From assembly GCA_038891095.1 (NCBI GenBank), contig JAWAEV010000001.1:318705-382704 (forward strand): 64,000 nt of DNA. The letters are read 5' to 3'. This document shows, piece by piece, positions 51,115 to 62,901 of the stretch. The DNA comes from Candidatus Altiarchaeota archaeon. Lineage in GTDB: Archaea > Altiarchaeota > Altiarchaeia > IMC4 > QMZM01. Every line of letters begins with the position of its first letter. Position 1 is the stretch's first letter. A program made the translations under genes and the position numbers. Below the pieces are notes generated by a model. That model worked only from the letters and a program-made list of their open reading frames with translations. It searched no databases and was not told where the DNA came from.

Positions 51115-52125
51115 TTAATTATCAAGTTTTATTTTTTTACCATTTTTAATAACAATTACTCCTCTCTCATGAATAACTTTACCAATTCTCATTATACCAT
51201 AGCCGCGAGAATACTTCATCAAAATTCTATTAGCATTTTTTTCATCTGCAATTATACAGAAGCCAACTCCCATATTAAAAGTTTGCAACATTTCCTTTAA
51301 TGAGATATTTCCAAATCTTTGTATTCTCTGAAAAACTTTTGGTGTTTTTGGTAGGTTATCTAAGATAAAACCAAAACTCGTTATCCTTTGCAAATTTCTG
51401 AAACCACCACCAGTTATATTAGCTAGTCCATTAACTTCGAACTCTTTTAAAATTTCTAAAATTAAGTTAGAATAAATTTTTGTTGGTTTTAATAGGTCTA
51501 TCTGCATATTTTCTGGAAGAACTTTTCTTGCTAAACTCAAACCATTTGAATGAATTCCAGATGATTTAACTCCAAGAACAATGTCATTAGGGGAAATTTT
51601 TCTACCGTCAATAACTTTTTCTTTCTTTACAACTCCTATAGCTGCTCCTGCTAAGTCAAAGCCCTTACCTTTAACACCTTTGATTATATCTGGAAGAGAA
51701 GCTGTTTCTCCACCAACAACCGCAATATTCGCAATTTTAGCTCCCTTATAAATACCTTTTGCTATCTCTTTTAGAATATTTTTGTCGACTTTTTCTAATG
51801 CAATATAATCAACCATTGCAACTGGCTCAGCACCTAAGCAAATTAAATCATTGACGAGCATTGCAACTAAGTCAATCCCTATAGTATCATATTTATCAAA
51901 TTTTTGAGCAATTAGAACTTTAGTGCCAACACCATCAGTTGTAAATGCAAGTAAATTTTCATTTCCTATGTCAATTAAATTTGCGAATGTTCCAATATCC
52001 AATTGAACTTCTCCAAATTTATCCCTCCTAAATTTAAAAGTTTTCTCAAGAATTTCCACTATGCTATCCTTTGAATCTTCCAACTTTGCTATGTTAACAC
52101 CTGCTTTTGCATATGTCATCTCCAT
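51115..52125 (-). CDS. purM: phosphoribosylformylglycinamidine cyclo-ligase
   Basis: TYAKAGV, TDGVGTK, GGETA, SSGIHSNG, TFNMG.GF. Confidence 0.97.
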   Translation of the reverse strand: MEMTYAKAGVNIAKLEDSKDSIVEILEKTFKFRRDKFGEVQLDIGTFANLIDIGNENLLAFTTDGVGTKVLIAQKFDKYDTIGIDLVAMLVNDLICLGAEPVAMVDYIALEKVDKNILKEIAKGIYKGAKIANIAVVGGETASLPDIIKGVKGKGFDLAGAAIGVVKKEKVIDGRKISPNDIVLGVKSSGIHSNGLSLARKVLPENMQIDLLKPTKIYSNLILEILKEFEVNGLANITGGGFRNLQRITSFGFILDNLPKTPKVFQRIQRFGNISLKEMLQTFNMGVGFCIIADEKNANRILMKYSRGYGIMRIGKVIHERGVIVIKNGKKIKLDN

Positions 52126-54170: not shown

Positions 54171-55475
54171 TTAAAAATTATCTTTTAGAATAAGATAGAT
54201 GTCGTTTAATGCAAGTTCACTCTGTAGAGGTTTACATTCATTTTTAATTTTTTCATAAGTCTCGCTTTTAATTAAATTCTGAAACTCGATTTTTAAATTT
54301 TTACAGGCAATCTCCAAAGCTTTATAACTCTCAGAATCATATCTCAAAAAGCAAAAAATTTTCTTGTAAGAATTTTTATGTGCTCTCAAATAATTCGCAA
54401 TTCTCTTAGATGTAACTTCAATGTACCTTTTTTTTATTTCCTTAGTCTCTAATTTTTCATCCCAGTCATATGCATTAAAAGGATAAAAATTTTCAAATTC
54501 TATTGGGACTACCCCAGGAGAAGAGATAAAAACCTCGTGGATTTTTTCATAGTTCCGCAATCTTTTCAATACACTTGAAATTTTTTTATGAGTATCTGAT
54601 AAAGAGTATGGCTTTTTATATGAGCACGGTAAAAAAAGTAAAATTTTTTTTTCTTTTGGAGGATTATACCACCTTTGTAAATAATCCTGCCATACTTCAT
54701 AGAATGGGTTTGTTAAATATTCCTCAGAAACTCCAATTAATGGTTTTTGTAATTCTTTTGGAAATCTTGGAAAAAAATGAAATGTTTCTGGATCTATCTC
54801 AATATTCTTCTCCTTTGTATACTCTTGCGTTATTTTGTAAAATTCTTCCTTTGAAAGAAAATTCCATTCACCTTTAAGCCACATTTCTATAAGTTCAGAA
54901 TTTTTATGCGGCAGTAAATTTATCAAAACAATTGAATCTGAAAATTTTTTTGCATATTCTACAGAAGTTCTAAGGGATTTTTCTACATTTTTTACAAAAG
55001 GTAAATTAACTAACAAATATGTTCTTAGCTTTGCTCCAGAACTATGGATAATTTTTTCAGCATTTTCAAAGTCCTTTAGAGAAAAACCTTTCTTTAATTT
55101 TCTGAGAATTTTATCATCAGCTATCTCTAAACCAATAGCAACAGTTAGTGATAACCCACAAAAATCAGACAAATTTTCTTTTGTTATAAATTCTGGCCTT
55201 GATTCAATAGTTATCCTTTCTATATTGCGCTTTTTACATTTATCTATGAAATACTTTCTCGCTTTCTTAGGAATTTGCCTTTCATCTAAAAAACTTCCTG
55301 AGCCAAAAATTTTTATTTCATCCGCTCTGCTATCAAGTCTTTCAAAAAAATCATCAAATTTCTTTTTTAAATTTTCAAAAGTTGGAGTTACACCTATAAT
55401 TTTTCCATAACCGCAGAAGATACATTTATGCCAAGAGCATTGCCCAGAATTAAGGACCATCACAGCAGTTGACAT
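54171..55475 (-). CDS. fusion of archaeosine radical-SAM RaSEA-like domain and ArcS-type DUF5591 domain
   Basis: N-terminal CSWHKCIFCGY, KIFGSGSFLD, ESRPEFI, AIGLE; C-terminal PCSYKKPYSLSDTH (PCx3KPYx2Sx2H) and SSPGVVP.E....YP...YD. Confidence 0.82.
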   Translation of the reverse strand: MSTAVMVLNSGQCSWHKCIFCGYGKIIGVTPTFENLKKKFDDFFERLDSRADEIKIFGSGSFLDERQIPKKARKYFIDKCKKRNIERITIESRPEFITKENLSDFCGLSLTVAIGLEIADDKILRKLKKGFSLKDFENAEKIIHSSGAKLRTYLLVNLPFVKNVEKSLRTSVEYAKKFSDSIVLINLLPHKNSELIEMWLKGEWNFLSKEEFYKITQEYTKEKNIEIDPETFHFFPRFPKELQKPLIGVSEEYLTNPFYEVWQDYLQRWYNPPKEKKILLFLPCSYKKPYSLSDTHKKISSVLKRLRNYEKIHEVFISSPGVVPIEFENFYPFNAYDWDEKLETKEIKKRYIEVTSKRIANYLRAHKNSYKKIFCFLRYDSESYKALEIACKNLKIEFQNLIKSETYEKIKNECKPLQSELALNDIYLILKDNF

Positions 55476-55479
55476 CTTA

Positions 55480-56931
55480 TCAATAGGTACCTTTCATCAT
55501 CTTTTGCTCTTCTCTTATCCTTTCCAGTTCTTCTCTTATCTTTCTAACTTTTTCTTCCTCTTCCTCAATTTTAACTTTTTCAAGCGCACTCTTTGTGAGT
55601 TCTAATAACTTTCCACCAAAAATTTGAGTACGAATTTTCACAAGACCTTCCTTCTCTAAATCCTTTGCAAGTTTATTTATTGTCCGCTCGTCAGTATTTA
55701 AAGCTTTAATTGCATCTTCAAATTTCATAGTTTTCTTGCTTTTAAGTAAATTGAAAAGGTCTTCTTTTGTTTTCTCACTTAGGCTTCTCTCTTCTTTCTC
55801 TTTTTCCTCTTTTTCAATTTCCTCAACAGATGGAATTTCAACTATTTCATTAGTAGCAACAGAGGTAGCTGCTGATTCTTTCGTTTTTTCATCTAAAGCT
55901 ACAGGAATCTCTTCAGAAAATCTTTTTTCTGGAGTTACTTCAAGTTGCTTTTCTTCTTTAATTTCAACCTTTTCTTCAGGTAAAATTTTCTTTAAAAGTT
56001 CTTCTTCCCGCAATTTCTCCGCTGTAGATTCAATTTTTTTAGATATTTCAGAAAGCTTCTCCTTATCCTCTTTAGTTTGAGTTACAAGCTCTTTTATCTT
56101 CTCTTCCTCAACCTTCTCTTCTTTTAGTTTTTCTTCCTCTGGAATTTCTTCTTTTTCATGAACTTCAGGTACCTTAATCTTTTCAACTTTTTCTTCCTCA
56201 GTGAAAAGAAATCTCAAGTCTTCTTCCCTATCTTTTATCCTTCTTTCTTCTTCTTCAAACAATTTTCTTAGCTTATTTACTTCCTTTTTTATTAGATTTT
56301 CGTTCTCATTGAGTTTAATCTCTCTGAATTTCAACTCCTCAGCTTTTCTCTTTAATTCATATTCCTTCTCCTCAATTTTTTCTTCTCTTATGCGCAATTC
56401 TCTTTCTTTCTCTGAAAGCTCAGCTTCTTTCTCATAAACTCTCTTTTCTCTTTCAATAATTTCTTTCTCTTTTTTTTCAACACCCTTTTCTCTGCTTAGT
56501 AACTCTAACTCAATTCTTTTAAGTTCATCTCTTTTGCTTTCAATTTCCTCTCTCTTCGTTTTACTTTCTTTATCTAAATCTACCTTTTCTTTTCTAATTT
56601 TTTTAGCTTCTACCTCTTTTTCTTTCTTTTCGATTTTTTTCTCTCTCTCTGAAAGCTCTTTTTCTCTTTCATCTAAAGTTTTCTTTTGCTCTTCAACACT
56701 CTTCCTGAGTTTCTCAACCTCTAATCTCAATTTTTCAATATCTTTTTTACTTTCCTCTATTTCTTTAGCAGTCTTTTCTAACTCTTCAGACTTTTTTTTA
56801 AGCTCAAACTCATCACCAAAAAATAGCTCAAGTTCTTTTGCCTCCTCCTGCAATTCTTGTTCTCTTTTCTTTAGTTCTTCTTCCCATTTCTTTAGTTCTT
56901 CTTCACTTTTTATCTTATTTTCTTCTTCCAT
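55480..56931 (-). CDS. long E/K-rich coiled-coil protein with C-terminal winged helix
   Basis: ~250 aa of heptad repeats, acidic linker, then K..MKFEDAIKAL......I..LAK.LEKEGLV.I. Confidence 0.7.
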   Translation of the reverse strand: MEEENKIKSEEELKKWEEELKKREQELQEEAKELELFFGDEFELKKKSEELEKTAKEIEESKKDIEKLRLEVEKLRKSVEEQKKTLDEREKELSEREKKIEKKEKEVEAKKIRKEKVDLDKESKTKREEIESKRDELKRIELELLSREKGVEKKEKEIIEREKRVYEKEAELSEKERELRIREEKIEEKEYELKRKAEELKFREIKLNENENLIKKEVNKLRKLFEEEERRIKDREEDLRFLFTEEEKVEKIKVPEVHEKEEIPEEEKLKEEKVEEEKIKELVTQTKEDKEKLSEISKKIESTAEKLREEELLKKILPEEKVEIKEEKQLEVTPEKRFSEEIPVALDEKTKESAATSVATNEIVEIPSVEEIEKEEKEKEERSLSEKTKEDLFNLLKSKKTMKFEDAIKALNTDERTINKLAKDLEKEGLVKIRTQIFGGKLLELTKSALEKVKIEEEEEKVRKIREELERIREEQKMMKGTY

Positions 56932-56959
56932 ACCATATTAAAATAGGTTTTTATTCTTT

Positions 56960-59173
56960 TTATACTTTTTTGTATGAAGATTTTATAACTTTTCTTATAT
57001 TTTCGGCCTTTACTTTGCCTATGCCATCAACTTTCATTAGCTCTTCCTCAGAGGCATTTATAACATTTTCAACTGAGCCAAATTTCTCAAGTAATCTCCT
57101 TGCTAAAACAGCAGATATATTTGGGAGTGATTCAACAACATATAATTGTTGCTCTTCTAAGGACAATGGTTTTTTCTCCCCATGTAGTGGAATTGGCTTA
57201 ATTTCAGGAAATTGCTCTCTTTTTGCTATTAAGAGAAGAAAATTTGCAGTATCCTCCTCATCTTTTGAGTATAAAATGTAGGTACCATAATCTAAAGCCA
57301 ATGATGTTATTGCACCACGGATTGCATTCGGGTGCAATTCTCTTAATGAATAAATTTCTGAGTCGCCTTCGATAATAAGTATTGCTATTGGAAAATTCCT
57401 TGTCATATCTGCGACTTGGGAGAAAAGTCTCTTGTCAATGATTGATTGTAAAAAATCCTTAACTGTTTTTCTTTCGACACAAACTCTCTCACTAAGGATA
57501 AAATCTCCAACTTGTAAACTTCTTATCTCAATTTCAGCATTTTCATTTAGAATTTCGAAAATTCTTGAATTTCTCTCACGAGAGTCAACAAAAATTTTAA
57601 CTTTTTTCTCATTTTCATTTGAATTTTCATTGCTATACTTAAGCAAACTTTGCTGTCCTGTAAAGCTAAAGCTTTCTTTCATTTTTCTTACCAGCTCTTT
57701 CATTTTTCTTTCTTTATGATAACTCGCCCATAAATAACTTTCATCTCTTGTTTTTTTAGCAATTAATATAATCACCTTCCCTGCTTTTGTTCTTCCTGTT
57801 CTGCCACGCCTTTGTATTGCTCTTATTTCTGAAGGTATAGGCTCATAAAAAATAACAAAGTCAACTCTTGGGATATCTAAACCTTCTTCAGCAACTGAAG
57901 TTGCAACAAGAGCATCATACTTCCCATTTTTAAAATTTTCTAAAATTTTTATCTGCTCTTTTTGAGACATGCCCTTTTTTTCACCCTTAGTTGCTTGGCC
58001 AATAAAATCCCTTGCGAATAAGTTGCTTTCATTTAGACTTTCGATTATCTTCTCAACAGAGTCGCGATATTGAGTAAAAATTAATATCTTTTTACCTTTA
58101 TTTGCAGAAACAATTTTTTTCAGTTCCTCAAGTTTTGGATGGTCAACCTTTAAGATATGTAGATCATGGACAATTTTTGTTAAATTTTTAATTCTTTCAT
58201 CAGAGAAAATTCTTTTTATTGCTTTTGTCCTTTGTTTTTGTAATCTTTCTAAGTAATTACAAAGAGAAGAAATTCCCTGTGTTTCTAAAAGTTCAAGGGC
58301 ATGACTTAGCTTTAATGCAGACGCAACTATTGACGCTTGATCGAAAGAGTCCATGCCTTGAGAAATCTCTTTTCTTATTTTTGATTGCACTTCAAGAAGC
58401 AATCTCTTATTAACCTTCTTTAGTTCAGATGTTGTGATATATGAAAATTTTTTCAACTCATTCAAATTTTCCTTTAGAATTTCTTCAATAATTTTCTTAA
58501 CTTTCAAAAATTCCTCTGGGAGTTCAACATAACGAAATTCTATTTTTGTTTTTTGTATATATGGTTTAACATCATGATCAGTCTCAGTTCTTGCCTCAAC
58601 TTGTTCTATAAACAAATTTTTGCAAATTTCATTTATAGTAGTAATATCACTAGAAGGTGATGCTGTCAGAGCAAGAATCAGAGCATTCTTTGATTTTTTT
58701 ATATACTCTTTGGCAATAGAAACATATGAGTAATTACCAACAGCTCTATGAGCCTCATCAAAAATTACCAATGAGAAATTCTCTAAGCTTAAACCACGGA
58801 AAATCTCATTTTCTATTGTCTGAGGAGTTGCAAAAATAACTTTACTTTTATTTAAAATTTCTTCCCTATTTTTTATTGGTACTATACCCGTGAGAACGCT
58901 ATCTTCTGTTATTGGAAAATTGAAAATTTCTGAAAAAGTCTTTCTATGCTGCACAGCTAATGGCTTTGTTGGAGCTAAAAACAAAATTTTAGATTCAGGA
59001 AAATTTTGCAACCTATGAGCTGAAACCATTGCTGCAATTATCGTCTTACCTAAGCCTGTTGGTAAAACAACTAAAGTATTTTTGTTTATAGCTAAAGAAA
59101 CAATTGATTCTTGATAGCTTCTTAGATTTACAGAATTTTCCTTTATTAGAGGATGTCTAACAAACATTCTCAA
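56960..59173 (-). CDS. hef: Hef (FANCM-like DEAH helicase + ERCC4 nuclease)
   Basis: LPTGLGKT, DEAH, QRRGRTGR, VDSRE, GDF...VERKT, HhH repeats. Confidence 0.96.
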   Translation of the reverse strand: MRMFVRHPLIKENSVNLRSYQESIVSLAINKNTLVVLPTGLGKTIIAAMVSAHRLQNFPESKILFLAPTKPLAVQHRKTFSEIFNFPITEDSVLTGIVPIKNREEILNKSKVIFATPQTIENEIFRGLSLENFSLVIFDEAHRAVGNYSYVSIAKEYIKKSKNALILALTASPSSDITTINEICKNLFIEQVEARTETDHDVKPYIQKTKIEFRYVELPEEFLKVKKIIEEILKENLNELKKFSYITTSELKKVNKRLLLEVQSKIRKEISQGMDSFDQASIVASALKLSHALELLETQGISSLCNYLERLQKQRTKAIKRIFSDERIKNLTKIVHDLHILKVDHPKLEELKKIVSANKGKKILIFTQYRDSVEKIIESLNESNLFARDFIGQATKGEKKGMSQKEQIKILENFKNGKYDALVATSVAEEGLDIPRVDFVIFYEPIPSEIRAIQRRGRTGRTKAGKVIILIAKKTRDESYLWASYHKERKMKELVRKMKESFSFTGQQSLLKYSNENSNENEKKVKIFVDSRERNSRIFEILNENAEIEIRSLQVGDFILSERVCVERKTVKDFLQSIIDKRLFSQVADMTRNFPIAILIIEGDSEIYSLRELHPNAIRGAITSLALDYGTYILYSKDEEDTANFLLLIAKREQFPEIKPIPLHGEKKPLSLEEQQLYVVESLPNISAVLARRLLEKFGSVENVINASEEELMKVDGIGKVKAENIRKVIKSSYKKV

Positions 59174-59553: not shown

Positions 59554-60231
59554 ATGAAAATGAGGCCCATTGTTGTGATAAATTTTAAGACATATAAAGA
59601 ATCCACTGGGGAACTTGGATTAAAACTCGCTAAGATTTGTGATGATACTGCGAAAGAGTATAAATTAGATATTTTCATTGCACCACAAGTTTCTGATATC
59701 TACAGAATTTCAAAAAATGTGAAAATTCCTGTATTTGCTCAACATATTGACGCTATTTCATATGGCTCAAACACAGGGCATGTACTTGCAGAAGCTATAA
59801 AAGAAGCTGGTGCCTCTGGGAGTTTGATAAATCATTCAGAAAAGAGACTAACTTTAGCAGATATTGAATTTTGTGTTAGGAAGTTGAAAGAACTTTCAAT
59901 GAGCTCAATAGTATGCAGCAATAACATTGAAACCACAAAAGCTATAGCTGCTCTTGAGCCTGATTTTGTAGCAATTGAACCACCTGAATTAATTGGTTCA
60001 GGTATACCAGTTTCAAAGGCTCAACCAGATATTGTCTCTAATGCTGTTGACGCTGCCAGAGAGGTATCAAAAAAAGTCAAAATTTTATGTGGTGCTGGCA
60101 TAAGCACTTGGGAGGATCTAAAAGCAGCTATTGATTTAGGCACAGATGGAGTTTTACTAGCATCAGGAATAGTAAAAGCAAAGGATCAAAAAAATGCTCT
60201 GTTAAATCTAATTGGACCATTAAAAAATTAA
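59554..60231 (+). CDS. tpiA: triosephosphate isomerase (archaeal type)
   Basis: INFKTY, AQHID, NHSE, EPPELIG, CGAGI, GVLLAS. Confidence 0.97.
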   Translation: MKMRPIVVINFKTYKESTGELGLKLAKICDDTAKEYKLDIFIAPQVSDIYRISKNVKIPVFAQHIDAISYGSNTGHVLAEAIKEAGASGSLINHSEKRLTLADIEFCVRKLKELSMSSIVCSNNIETTKAIAALEPDFVAIEPPELIGSGIPVSKAQPDIVSNAVDAAREVSKKVKILCGAGISTWEDLKAAIDLGTDGVLLASGIVKAKDQKNALLNLIGPLKN

Positions 60232-61601
60232 AAGAATAGATCTCTTTCACCATTTTCTATTCTTTTCAATCTGATTTTTGTCTCATTGCGCATTTTTCTG
60301 TCAGAAATTTCTCTTAGATACTTTTTAATCACTTTTAAACCAATTTTTTTTATCTCAGGGTGTGCATAGTCTTCAAGGTATTCTTTGAATGTTAGGATAG
60401 CATTCGGCCTACAAAGATTATGAATTTTTCCAGATTTCAAAAGCTTCATAATTGTTTCTCCAGTTCTATTAACTCTGTAGCATGCAGTACAAAAACTTGG
60501 CAAGAGACCTTGCTTTAAAACTGACAAAAGAACTTCATCAACTTTTCTATGGTCCTGAATAGAAAATTGCTCTAAAGTATCTTCTTTGCCATAACCACCA
60601 GGATTTGTTCTTGAAGCAGCACTCGTTTGTGAGATACCTATTTCAAATGCTTTTGCCCTTATTTCTGGTCTTTCTCTTGTTGAAATTATCATCCCTGTAT
60701 ATGGAACAGCCATTCTTAAAATTGAAATAACTTTTAGCAACTGATCTTCATTAATTTTATAAGGTAGTTCAAGATCAACTGTTGGCGCTGGTTGAAATCT
60801 TGGAACTGAAATTGTATGCGGACCAACATTATACTCTCTATCAAGATACTGCGAATGAGAAACTAAAGCTAAAGTATCAAATTTATAATCAAACAAACCA
60901 TAAAGAACACCTAAACCAACATCATCTATTCCTGCTTTCATAGCTCTATCATGAGCAAAAATTTGTCTTTCATAATCTGCCTTAGGACCATGATGAAATT
61001 TCTCATATGTTTTCCTATGATATGTTTCTTGGAAGAGTTGATATGTACCAATTCCTGCTTCTTTTAGCTTTCTATAATTCTCAACTGTTGTTGCTGAAAT
61101 ATTTACATTAACTCTTCTTATCTCGCCTTTGCCAGATTTTGTCTTATAAATTGTTTTTATAGCATCAACCACATAATCAATCGTATTTAAAGGATGTTCA
61201 CCACATTCTAACAGAATTCTTTTGTGTCCCATATTTATGAGAATTTTTGTTTGCTCTTCAATTTCTTTGAGTGTTAATTTTTTTCTCCCTGCAGGATTTC
61301 TTTTATGAAAACCACAATAATCACAATCGTTGATACAGAAATTTGATATATAGAGTGGTGCAAAAAAAACAAGTCGTTCTCCATAAATTTCTTTTTTAAT
61401 TTTACCAGAAATTCTAAACATCCTTGCTATTAGATTTTTATCCTCAGTGTTTAGAAGGGTGGCAACTTCCTCTAAACTTAAACCTTTCTTCTTAGAAGCT
61501 TTTTTCAAAATTTCAAGAACAATTTTTTTTGTTGGATTTTTTGTTTCTTCTAAGATGTTAGTTATTTCCTTTTCATTTACAACATCTTTAATATTTGGCA
61601 T
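60228..61601 (-). CDS. hydG: [FeFe]-hydrogenase maturase HydG (radical SAM)
   Basis: CINDCDYC, IRRVNVN, LFQETY, GPHTISVPR, C-terminal CTAC-x22-C (Cx2Cx22C), GERDLFF. Confidence 0.93.
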   Translation of the reverse strand: MPNIKDVVNEKEITNILEETKNPTKKIVLEILKKASKKKGLSLEEVATLLNTEDKNLIARMFRISGKIKKEIYGERLVFFAPLYISNFCINDCDYCGFHKRNPAGRKKLTLKEIEEQTKILINMGHKRILLECGEHPLNTIDYVVDAIKTIYKTKSGKGEIRRVNVNISATTVENYRKLKEAGIGTYQLFQETYHRKTYEKFHHGPKADYERQIFAHDRAMKAGIDDVGLGVLYGLFDYKFDTLALVSHSQYLDREYNVGPHTISVPRFQPAPTVDLELPYKINEDQLLKVISILRMAVPYTGMIISTRERPEIRAKAFEIGISQTSAASRTNPGGYGKEDTLEQFSIQDHRKVDEVLLSVLKQGLLPSFCTACYRVNRTGETIMKLLKSGKIHNLCRPNAILTFKEYLEDYAHPEIKKIGLKVIKKYLREISDRKMRNETKIRLKRIENGERDLFF

Positions 61602-61602
61602 T

Positions 61603-62901
61603 TTAAATTCCTATATCAGTTGGCGCTCTTCCAAGAGAATATAACAAATTTAATGTTCTTTCTATATTTCTTTCAATACTATCTTTATCTCCTGCTCTGT
61701 TTGGATAAATTGAATAAAGTCGTTTGTATTTCTTTGGAGTTAAATTTATCATTAAGGAATTTGCACCAGAGAGTAAGGCTAATTTTGCGCCCTTTTCTTT
61801 GTATAATGTCTCTAATGCAGTCGTAACTAATATTTTAGCATTTGGATTAATAAATCTACTTACTGCGATAACCTTCAAAACAGTGTTAAGTTCTATTGTA
61901 CTAAAATTTGCTAATGGCGTTTTAGGGTTTGGTATAAAAGGTCCAATTGACCACATTTCTGCATTTAAATTTTTTGTCATGAAGATATCATTCATCAAAT
62001 CTTCTTCTTTTTGTCCAGGTAGTCCTATAAGGAATCCTGTTGCAATTAAATATCCAACTTTATTTGCATATTTCAAAATTTGAATTCTTCTCCTAAAATT
62101 CTCTTTTGGACCTGAATGTAGTTTCTTGTATATATGTAAATTTGAAGTTTCAAATCTAAGTAATATTCCTCTTGCTCCTGCAGAATACATTTTTTTATAG
62201 CATTCAATGCTTCTATTGCCAATGCTCATAAACAAAAGCGCAGGGCATCTAAGCTTTATCTTTCTTATAATCTCACAAAGCATTTCATCAGTGTAATAAA
62301 GATCCTCACCAGATTGCAAAACAAGTGCTTTGAAGCCTAACTTATTAACAGCATAATCAGCTATTTCTAAAATTTCATCAATGCTCATTCTATAACGCTT
62401 TAAATTTTTATTCCCTTTTCTTATACCACAATAAAGGCAATTATTCCTGCAATAATTTGAGAATTCTATTATGCCGTGAACACAGCACGAATTCTTCAAA
62501 TTTTTTCTTCTTATGTTGTTTGCAGTTTTAAATAAAAGCTCAAGCTCTTCTTTTTTATTTGTTTTTAGCAATTTCAAAATTTCTTCTCTTTTCAGAGGAA
62601 TTTCCTTTTTTACCTTTTCAATTATTTTTGTAAATTCTGTTTTCTTAGATAGCTTCCTTATGTTTGATATCTTAGAATCAATTTTTTTAAGATCAAAAAA
62701 TGTCTTTTTCCATTCTTTTAGTATTAGTAAAGCATCCTGCTTTGGTATTTTTTGAACTATAAAACCTCCTTGAGCATAAACATAATCTCCTAAGTCAATA
62801 TCAGAAAATTCATTTAGGACTTTTCTTTTTTCTCCAAAATAATCAACTATTGCAAATCTATCCTGAAGAGAGATAACTTTTCCAGGTATCGCATAACACA
62901 T
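61603..62901 (-). CDS. HypC-domain / HydE-like radical SAM fusion
   Basis: N-terminal MCYAIPGKV....AIVDY.G..R.V......GDYV (HypC/HupF); then IEFSNYCRNNCLYCG.R, VLQSGED, LRFET, GPFIP.P.TPL, TTALET, GAN..M.NLTP..Y...YSIYP (HydE). Confidence 0.88.
   Translation of the reverse strand: MCYAIPGKVISLQDRFAIVDYFGEKRKVLNEFSDIDLGDYVYAQGGFIVQKIPKQDALLILKEWKKTFFDLKKIDSKISNIRKLSKKTEFTKIIEKVKKEIPLKREEILKLLKTNKKEELELLFKTANNIRRKNLKNSCCVHGIIEFSNYCRNNCLYCGIRKGNKNLKRYRMSIDEILEIADYAVNKLGFKALVLQSGEDLYYTDEMLCEIIRKIKLRCPALLFMSIGNRSIECYKKMYSAGARGILLRFETSNLHIYKKLHSGPKENFRRRIQILKYANKVGYLIATGFLIGLPGQKEEDLMNDIFMTKNLNAEMWSIGPFIPNPKTPLANFSTIELNTVLKVIAVSRFINPNAKILVTTALETLYKEKGAKLALLSGANSLMINLTPKKYKRLYSIYPNRAGDKDSIERNIERTLNLLYSLGRAPTDIGI

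Follow-up and report, generated by a model that had tools for sequence, protein, structure and literature searches.

In a 64,000-nt stretch of the genome of a Candidatus Altiarchaeota archaeon (contig JAWAEV010000001.1; the whole stretch is called the window here), two adjacent genes encode a fusion of a HypC-like domain with a HydE-like radical S-adenosylmethionine (SAM) domain (HypC::HydE) and a HydG. Sequence, synteny and phyletic pattern suggest that these two proteins probably form a [NiFe] hydrogenase maturation module, which would do the work of HypD, HypE and HypF. With somewhat less assurance, we favor a broader picture of a HypDEF-independent radical-SAM pathway fed by tyrosine. In this pathway a neofunctionalised HydE, carrying Cys140-x-His142, would act as a HypD-like scaffold for the fused HypC, HydG would be shared with [FeFe] hydrogenase maturation, and gene transfer would have spread the genes through DPANN archaea and through over ten phyla of bacteria. 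An earlier reading of the window (the original prediction) had offered, as one of its routes, that HydG-derived Fe, CO and CN are delivered through HypC to a [NiFe] enzyme. This route now has strong genomic support from the census, synteny, paralogy and active site described below.

The two-gene locus

Both genes are on the minus strand, as are all features of the locus given here. The upstream open reading frame (ORF) encodes the 432-aa HypC::HydE-like fusion (61603-62901), as defined by Pfam and NCBIfam profiles and an AlphaFold2 (AF2) model. The downstream ORF encodes the 457-aa HydG (60228-61601). The spacer between the stop codon of the fusion and the ATG of hydG is a single nucleotide (61602).

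The HypC-like domain covers aa 1-80 of the fusion (62662-62901). The Pfam profile HupF_HypC (PF01455) matched aa 1-63 with 49.6 bits, against a gathering threshold of 28.5. The stricter NCBIfam HypC profile TIGR00074 gave 33.5 bits, under its cut-off of 48. Alignment with the HypC of Thermococcus kodakarensis (2z1c; E 1.4e-10 over aa 1-66) showed that Cys2 (codon at 62896-62898), in the N-terminal MCYAIPG (aa 1-7), was retained. The conserved chaperone His of the GDxVLVHxG stretch, which we take to be His51 of Escherichia coli HypC, was not kept and was paired with Gln44. This Gln is in YAQGG (62764-62778), within the sequence DYVYAQGG that ends at aa 46. The AF2 model placed strands at aa 7-13, 16-21, 24-29, 40-44 and 47-52 and a helix at aa 54-79, with a pLDDT of 84-94 for the block. 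The predicted fold is a small beta-barrel with a C-terminal helix, as in HupF/HypC chaperones.

The HydE-like barrel covers aa 89-427 (61621-62637), as aligned by phmmer with Thermotoga maritima HydE (TmHydE; 7o1o, 246.6 bits). Pfam matched Radical_SAM at aa 145-304 and BATS at aa 322-407. The HydE equivalog TIGR03956 scored 283 bits (cut-off 254.6); many other fused members scored 218-254 bits, just under this cut-off. The profiles of PylB (167 bits, cut-off 348), BioB (104 bits, cut-off 225) and HmdB (87 bits, cut-off 321) all stayed below threshold, and ThiH was also far below. In the AF2 model of the whole fusion (pLDDT 93, pTM 0.92), a five-stranded domain is followed by a long helix and then the barrel. 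The top Foldseek matches were TmHydE entries (E about 2e-31, 38-40% identity, TM 0.91-0.96), with PylB next at 26% identity. The radical-SAM motif CX3CX2C is CRNNCLYC (aa 151-158, with C151, C155 and C158; 62428-62451), its cysteines being invariant in fused and unfused HydE, and a YSIY tail motif is at aa 396-399.

HydG scored 556 bits with TIGR03955 (cut-off 312) and 294 bits with ThiH, under the cut-off of 380. It aligned end to end with the crystallised HydG of Thermoanaerobacter italicus (4wcx, 558.6 bits). The radical-SAM CX3CX2C motif is CINDCDYC (aa 89-96; 61314-61337). The GPHTIS motif (aa 260-265; 60807-60824) is identical to that in 4wcx, and presumably supplies the His ligand of the dangler Fe. 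The C-terminal Cx2Cx22C of the auxiliary cluster (aa 371-397; 60411-60491) was located in the 4wcx alignment. From this similarity, the protein is a putative tyrosine lyase giving Fe(CO)2(CN)-cysteine.

These results bear out the original prediction on the architecture of the locus: two genes separated by 1 bp, an N-terminal HypC domain with Cys2 and a Gln for the His, a HydE-like barrel with CxxxCxxC and a YxxY-type tail, and a HydG with its SAM motif, GPHTIS and Cx2Cx22C intact. The N-terminus, which might have escaped the HypC profile, was recognised by it, and the radical-SAM domain grouped with HydE and not with PylB or BioB.

A conserved family of fused proteins

The fusion is a conserved family, mostly bacterial and horizontally spread. 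The best 120 of 3352 database matches were all about 390-730 aa long and carried both PF01455 and PF04055. Their archaeal sources included Aenigmarchaeota, Woesearchaeota, Altiarchaeota, Nanoarchaeota and Undinarchaeota, and the bacterial sources included Margulisiibacteriota, Saganbacteria, Omnitrophica, Elusimicrobiota and Nitrospirota. Their database labels are "HydE" or "biotin synthase". When longer proteins were searched, 15 triple fusions (HypC-HydE-HydG, 805-946 aa) came to light. Two of them were verified by domain, with HydE at about aa 100-410 and HydG at about aa 450-922, both above cut-offs.

A maximum-likelihood tree was built from the radical-SAM domains with the HypC part trimmed off. 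It contained 93 rows (28 fused and 65 unfused); one truncated sequence (L035) was dropped. All 28 fused domains fell on one side of a branch with SH-aLRT support of 100, separate from the 65 unfused ones, and archaeal and bacterial members were mixed inside the fused clade.

The HypC part was conserved as well. In an alignment of 16 fusions, M1, C2, Y3, I5, P6, G7, G38, Y40, A43, Q44, G45 and G46 were identical in all 16, and the residues of MCYxIPG, YxGE and GxYxYAQGG were invariant. All 29 listed fusion N-termini begin with MC. The position of the HypC His is occupied by Gln throughout the main fused clade, and by Tyr, His, Tyr and Tyr in a minor clade of four. This minor sub-clade (L033, L036, L037 and L039) also starts with MCLTIP and has Ser or Thr at the R244 position; HydG was not found in two of its four genomes (G083 and G084).

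The original prediction had spoken of a module "in an archaeon", which proved too narrow for a family present in DPANN archaea and many bacterial phyla. The profile search that it proposed did recover a conserved fusion. It had also considered that the HypC part might be non-conserved and dispensable, with hydF and hydA elsewhere; the key residues of this part were found invariant across phyla.

A different combination was met in G015, a genome of the same family as that of the window. A 447-aa frame with a HypC match (C6:2283-3488) was rejected as a radical-SAM fusion, being composed of HypC and HypD. It may be a HypC-HypD fusion.

The active site of the HydE-like domain

Residues were compared between the 28 fused and 65 unfused domains, using TmHydE numbering assigned through the phmmer alignment, with the offset verified on nine identical residues. 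The SAM-cluster cysteines, E58, V105, L157, M224, M291, T268, T269 and Y306 were kept in all or nearly all of the 93. M224, M291, E58 and Y306 were kept in every fused and unfused domain. According to two reports on TmHydE (PMC10114646 and PMC11826987), the Fe(I)(CO)2(CN) fragment that is left once the cysteine is removed is carried by M291 and M224, and R54, T134, R155 and T269 touch the cyanides of the computed di-iron product (the role of R54 being given in PMC11826987).

The residues of this product site differed between the two groups. R54 was Arg in all 65 unfused domains and His in all 28 fused ones (His142 in the fusion of the window). T134 was Thr in 63 of the 65 unfused, and Phe, Ile or Cys in all the fused (Phe in the window). 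R155 was Arg in 64/65 unfused, and Gly or Ala in 28/28 fused (Gly in the window). The position of H52 was Cys in 28/28 fused and 0/65 unfused; this is Cys140 of the fusion in the window, and it forms with His142 the clade-specific segment C139-C140-V-H142 (62476-62487).

Changes were also found near the two methionines, which are Met316 (M224) and Met384 (M291) in the fusion of the window (segment 61744-61959). G226 was Gly in all 65 unfused, and Ser or Thr in all 28 fused; V289 was Val in 60/65 unfused, and Ser, Thr or Ala in 28/28 fused. In the window these are Ser318 and Ser382. Judged from these alignments, the substrate side of HydE is conserved, and the di-iron product site is rebuilt with potential metal ligands.

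Hydrogenase and maturation genes in the genome of the window

The genome that contains the window (G000; 958,546 bp in 15 contigs, 93.65% complete, 0.48% contamination) was searched as a whole with profiles. No Fe_hyd_lg_C match ([FeFe] hydrogenase HydA), no HypD and no HypA were found in it. HydF was represented by GTPase-domain matches of at most 45 bits only (cut-off 326). HypF had no match above its cut-off in this genome, with two weak and short matches to the N-terminal and C-terminal parts only. HypB and HypE likewise had no match above their cut-offs; the best one for HypE was 41.6 bits (cut-off 251.6). The fused HypC is the sole HypC of the genome.

Two of the sub-threshold matches were inspected. 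The HypE-like match, at 51115-52125 of the window, was rejected as HypE on account of its score, an N-terminus that looked PurM-like by eye and the lack of a C-terminal Cys motif. The best HydF-like GTPase-domain match (G000:C1:307732-308316) is about 10.4 kb upstream of the window and contains one TGA and one TAG.

A single [NiFe] large subunit was found, on contig C5. It is 426 aa long, matches PF00374 with 115 bits, contains RICGVC...DPCISCSTH and ends in a 9-residue C-terminal extension. The operon has the order beta-gamma-small-large, with a Fer4_22 beta subunit, a gamma subunit with NAD_binding_1 and DHODB_Fe-S_bind, and an Oxidored_q6 small subunit. On the basis of this operon architecture, we take the enzyme to be of group 3b type. 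In a complex prediction of the HypC domain (aa 1-82) with this large subunit, the scores were 0.03 and 0.01 (mark 0.32), and the result is counted neither for nor against.

The 9-residue extension would need trimming. A 125-aa ORF follows the large subunit (G000:C5:47420-47797). It has no Pfam match, and shows a weak GN..(E/D)D likeness (E 0.028) to a locus ORF that looks protease-like by eye. With a weak motif alone and no Pfam match, "protease" is only a guess for this ORF.

The original prediction was right that the window contains no hydA, hydF, hypD, hypE, hypF or hydrogenase gene, to which the [NiFe] operon on C5 of the same genome is now added. The genome-wide census of hydA, hydF, hypABCDEF and large subunits that it suggested returned, above cut-offs, only the fused HypC and this operon.

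Co-occurrence with [NiFe] hydrogenase and absence of HypD

Twenty-nine genomes with the fusion were compared, five from the phylum of the window (its own genome included) and 24 from other phyla. One genome per species was scanned, and the 24 were those with full-length fusion loci among the best 80 of at least 567 confirmed matches; the other 56 of these 80 loci were unfused HydE. The 24 outside genomes came from Woesearchaeota, Micrarchaeota, Omnitrophota, Brevinematales, Nitrospirae, Falkowbacteria, Planctomycetota (including Scalindua), Margulisiibacteriota, a gammaproteobacterial bin, Chitinispirillaceae, Elusimicrobiales, Thermodesulfobacteriota, Patescibacteria, Saccharibacteria and two "uncultured bacterium" bins.

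A [NiFe] large subunit above the Pfam cut-off was present in all 29 (24/24 outside the phylum), and HypD was found in none (0/29; 0/24 outside). HypF above cut-off was absent from all 25 fusion genomes searched (the own genome and the 24 outside). HydA was present in 13 of the 29 (11/24 outside) and absent from 16. Among the 24 outside genomes, HydG was above cut-off in 21, and HydF was above cut-off in five and near it in two, all seven having HydA. In 26 control genomes with unfused HydE, HydA was found in 23 and HydF above cut-off in 23. Ten of these controls have a [NiFe] large subunit, and all ten have HypD.

Within the phylum of the window (61 species genomes), the fusion followed by hydG was found in G000, G033, G037, G039 and G042. 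Each of them has a [NiFe] large subunit, HypD is absent from every one, and HydA is present in G033 and G039. Across the 61 genomes, HypD was found in 22, and HydG in seven above cut-off plus one partial, and the two never co-occurred. G044 and G047 have HydG and HydA and no [NiFe] large subunit. The HydE of G047 is unfused; in G044, which was not searched for HydE, hydG is at a contig end.

Eight fusion genomes (G065, G068, G070, G072, G074, G076, G077 and G080) contain a second, unfused HydE, which falls among the canonical ones in the tree. All eight have HydA, and seven have HydF. Exactly one HydG above cut-off was found in seven of the eight. This single HydG adjoins the fusion and [NiFe] genes in G074, and canonical hydE (and hydF) in G068, G076 and G077. 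One HydG therefore seems to feed two HydE-type enzymes.

Linkage to [NiFe] hydrogenase operons

In 13 of the 24 outside loci, the fusion was in or beside a [NiFe] hydrogenase operon, nine of group 3b type and four of group 4 type. In L016, L019, L020, L022, L025, L026 and L028, the fusion is immediately preceded on its own strand by a 3b-type operon (beta, gamma, small, large), which in L033 and L036 is convergent with it. The fusion comes after a group-4-type membrane-bound hydrogenase in L024, L027, L030 and L034. The large subunits of this type are 359-393 aa long where complete (that of L024 is truncated by the start of its contig), with DPCxxCTER as the C-terminal end in all four; those of L030 and L027 matched Complex1_49kDa and the NiFeSe N-terminus in Pfam.

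Other maturation genes were found in these loci. A HycI-type protease, Pfam-checked in L016 and read by eye elsewhere, is encoded between the large subunit and the fusion. A hypA-like ORF was detected by tblastn just upstream of the fusion in eight of the 24 loci, three of them Pfam-checked. It is a full-length hypA (110-114 aa) in L024, L030 and L034. In four loci it is a mini-HypA of 80-87 aa directly upstream of the fusion (L016:3709-3954, L022:2381-2623, L028:9644-9886 and L027:9556-9798). The mini-HypA starts with MHE, covers positions 1-70 of the 112 of Pfam HypA, and is without the zinc-binding CxxC...CxxC half that the full-length forms have; no counterpart of it was found by tblastn in the genome of the window. 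Adjacent to the fusion, hydG was found in 11/24 outside loci and in 4/4 in-phylum loci. With large subunit, protease, hypA, hypC::hydE and hydG in this order, the arrangement resembles a hyp operon in which hydE and hydG replace hypDEF.

Some further features of these loci were noted. In two Omnitrophota loci (L016:5392-6024 and L028:11411-12079), an ORF of 210-222 aa between the fusion and hydG resembles, by eye, the redox-sensing repressor Rex. In Scalindua (L025:8411-9722), a 52-aa remnant of the HypC-like N-terminus of the fusion is upstream of the intact fusion, and a 400-aa gene on the opposite strand resembles S-adenosylmethionine synthetases of the archaeal type. In L030 (6949-7851) and L034 (6946-7851), the group-4-type hydrogenase has a NuoB-like small subunit with a GNAT acetyltransferase domain at its C-terminus (Pfam Oxidored_q6 and Acetyltransf_1/10 in L030).

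Proposed pathway

In the proposed pathway, HydG would cleave tyrosine and build a cysteine-bound Fe(CO)2(CN) on its C-terminal cluster, as expected from its similarity to characterised HydG. The HydE-like domain would take this unit and remove the cysteine by 5'-deoxyadenosyl-radical chemistry, as suggested by the conservation of the SAM cluster, E58, Y306, M291 and M224. The chemistry of HydG and HydE is established for the canonical enzymes only.

In canonical HydE, R54, T134 and R155 make up the product site, where the computed di-iron product would sit before HydF. With this site rebuilt and Cys140-x-His142 gained, the iron in the fused enzyme probably stays mononuclear and is transferred to Cys2. 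Its path may lead over Met384 and Met316 to Cys140/His142, and from there to Cys2 in the tethered HypC. The HypC domain would load the apo large subunit, here that of the group-3b-type enzyme on C5, as the known role of HypC and the operon order in other genomes suggest. Nickel insertion and C-terminal proteolysis would follow.

Several points weigh against this pathway. All its steps were inferred, and the evidence is genomic. The product of HydG bears two CO and one CN, against one CO and two CN at the [NiFe] site. Either the second cyanide released by HydG would displace one CO, or these enzymes may bear a different ligand set. In the genome of the window the module is unlinked to the hydrogenase operon, and a nickel chaperone (HypA/HypB) was not found by the profile searches. 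K309 of TmHydE, a proposed radical-relay Lys, is Lys in only 7 of the 28 fused domains. Three of the 24 outside genomes (G070, G083 and G084) have no HydG above cut-off.

Five other genomes of the phylum (G031, G036, G050, G051 and G056; 70-92% complete) have a 3b-type large subunit, and no HypD, HydG, HydE or HypE above cut-offs. A standalone HypC beside the large subunit was clear in four of them; G031 gave only weak matches (28.7 and 27.3 bits). A [NiFe] hydrogenase without HypD therefore does not by itself imply the module. These five exceptions may be incomplete bins, or may use yet another route. The large subunits of G036 (L100), G050 (L095) and G051 (L096), like those of the fusion genomes G033 (L099) and G037 (L098), end at ...DPCITCSVH with no extension and are followed by a standalone canonical HypC; those of G031 and G056 have a short C-terminal extension.

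The census has its own limits. Nearly all the genomes are metagenome bins of varied completeness. The counts are not independent, because the genomes are related by descent or gene transfer. The outside genomes represent the best 80 of at least 567 matches and not a complete survey.

Alternative explanations

The module might give only a part of the cofactor (CO or an Fe-CO intermediate) and replace HypDEF partially, with other proteins supplying the scaffold and the cyanides. We regard this as unlikely. The mismatch in ligand counts between the HydG product and the [NiFe] site would be accounted for in this way, and the relatives with a large subunit and HypC and neither HypD nor HydG hint at further factors. 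G033 and G037 have an extra standalone HypC next to the large subunit, besides the fusion and HydG. On the other hand, HydG makes CN too. To our knowledge, HypE and HypF are the only cyanide source for [NiFe] hydrogenases, and HypF was absent from the 25 fusion genomes searched and HypE from the own genome. In the 13 linked loci, hydrogenase subunits, protease, hypA, fusion, hydG and rex were found near the fusion, and no recurrent unassigned gene, as read by tblastn with the seven proteins of the window and from the ORFs of eleven of the 13, the remaining ORFs not being systematically clustered.

It is quite improbable that the module makes an Fe-CO/CN unit or another product for a different metalloenzyme, with an indirect association with [NiFe] hydrogenase. 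Its function is inferred from genomes alone, the module of the window is flanked by a triose-phosphate-isomerase-like gene on one side and a KaiC/RadA-like gene on the other, away from the hydrogenase, and 11 of the 24 outside loci have no hydrogenase gene nearby. Against this stand the [NiFe] large subunit in 29/29 fusion genomes, HypD in 0/29 and an operon order that mirrors hyp operons. Moreover, the fused domain is HypC, and we know of no client of HypC other than the [NiFe] large subunit.

A module for [FeFe] hydrogenase, with HypC as the carrier instead of HydF, was the other route in the original prediction, and is very unlikely in the light of the census. In its favor, the curated cut-offs for HydE and HydG are exceeded by the radical-SAM domain and HydG. 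HydA occurs in 13 of the 29 fusion genomes, and many archaea with HydA lack HydEFG, according to a 2024 survey (PMC11216029). HydA was nevertheless missing from the own genome and from 16 of the 29. Eight of the 13 fusion genomes with HydA have the additional canonical HydE, and in seven of these eight HydF is beside it. Where canonical hydE, hydF and hydA were located, they were on contigs other than that of the fusion, and 13 of the 24 fusion loci show linkage to [NiFe] genes (these loci were not screened for hydA). R54, T134 and R155 of the di-iron product site are all replaced.

Finally, an ordinary HydE with an accidental domain, the absence of HypD, HypE, HypF, HydA and HydF being an artefact of incomplete bins (the own genome is 93.65% complete, and many others 60-92%), is hardly credible when HypD is absent from 29/29 fusion genomes and present in 10/10 controls with a large subunit, the key HypC residues do not vary between phyla, an active-site signature sets the fused clade apart and triple fusions exist.

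Other features of the window

Next to the locus, a 434-aa Cys-rich radical-SAM-like protein, a 483-aa Glu/Lys-rich coiled-coil protein and a 737-aa Hef-like helicase-nuclease are encoded on the minus strand at 54171-59173. One RNA-library run (X6) gave a single 160-nt contig at 60499-60658 with one mismatch and two short partial pieces, too little for a claim of transcription. The DNA of the window was present in four runs from a single study (word share 0.54-1.00) and, with a small share, in a second study; all were labelled hot-springs metagenome.

Significance

Searches of the full-text literature, supplementary files apart, found neither a HypC-HydE fusion nor a role of HydG in [NiFe] maturation described. 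The available text of PMC11216029, PMC12134894, PMC12727194, PMC10114646 and PMC11826987 also contained neither. The main text of the 2024 survey of archaeal [FeFe] hydrogenases (PMC11216029) does not mention HypC; its Table S3 of archaeal maturase matches may include these proteins. In the accessible part of one review, the origin of the CO ligand under anoxia is an open question, and HydG and radical SAM are unmentioned.

If the proposed pathway is correct, it would be a second, previously unrecognised way of making the Fe-carbonyl-cyanide center of [NiFe] hydrogenases, used by a large set of uncultivated anaerobes. The finding is of high interest because it would contradict the view of HypCDEF as universal for these enzymes. 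Tyrosine would be a defined and isotope-traceable source of the CO ligand under anoxia, and the module would form a direct biosynthetic bridge between the [NiFe] and [FeFe] classes. A ligand-synthesis module of two genes, or even one, could simplify heterologous production of [NiFe] hydrogenases. The labels "HydE" and "biotin synthase" on the fused proteins can mislead toward [FeFe] maturation.

Comparison with known systems

The proposed module resembles the HypABCDEF pathway of E. coli and T. kodakarensis in its HypC-type OB-fold chaperone with an essential N-terminal Cys and in its likely client, the [NiFe] large subunit; the fusion also shares its operon, in other genomes, with hypA and a HycI-type protease. 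It differs in lacking a HypD scaffold as well as the HypE/HypF route from carbamoyl phosphate to cyanide. The conserved HypC His is Gln, the chaperone is covalently joined to a radical-SAM enzyme, and the ligands would derive from tyrosine.

With the HydE/HydF/HydG pathway (T. maritima HydE, T. italicus HydG) it shares a HydG that is canonical in all motifs, and a HydE-like domain with the same fold, SAM cluster, E58, Y306, M224 and M291. Unlike that pathway, it is found in a genome without HydF and HydA, R54, T134 and R155 are replaced and Cys140-x-His142 is gained. The fused clade is separate, and coexists with canonical HydE in genomes with [FeFe] hydrogenase.

HypX, the aerobic CO-ligand synthase, reportedly also adds to the standard Hyp set a distinct chemistry for a diatomic ligand. 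It is said to use a formyl donor, to supply CO only and to need HypCDEF still, and to have no sequence kinship with radical-SAM enzymes. PylB, BioB and HmdB share with the fusion the (beta-alpha)8 radical-SAM barrel and the BATS domain. The fusion is under the curated cut-offs of all three, and its fold match to PylB, at 26% identity, is lower than that to TmHydE.

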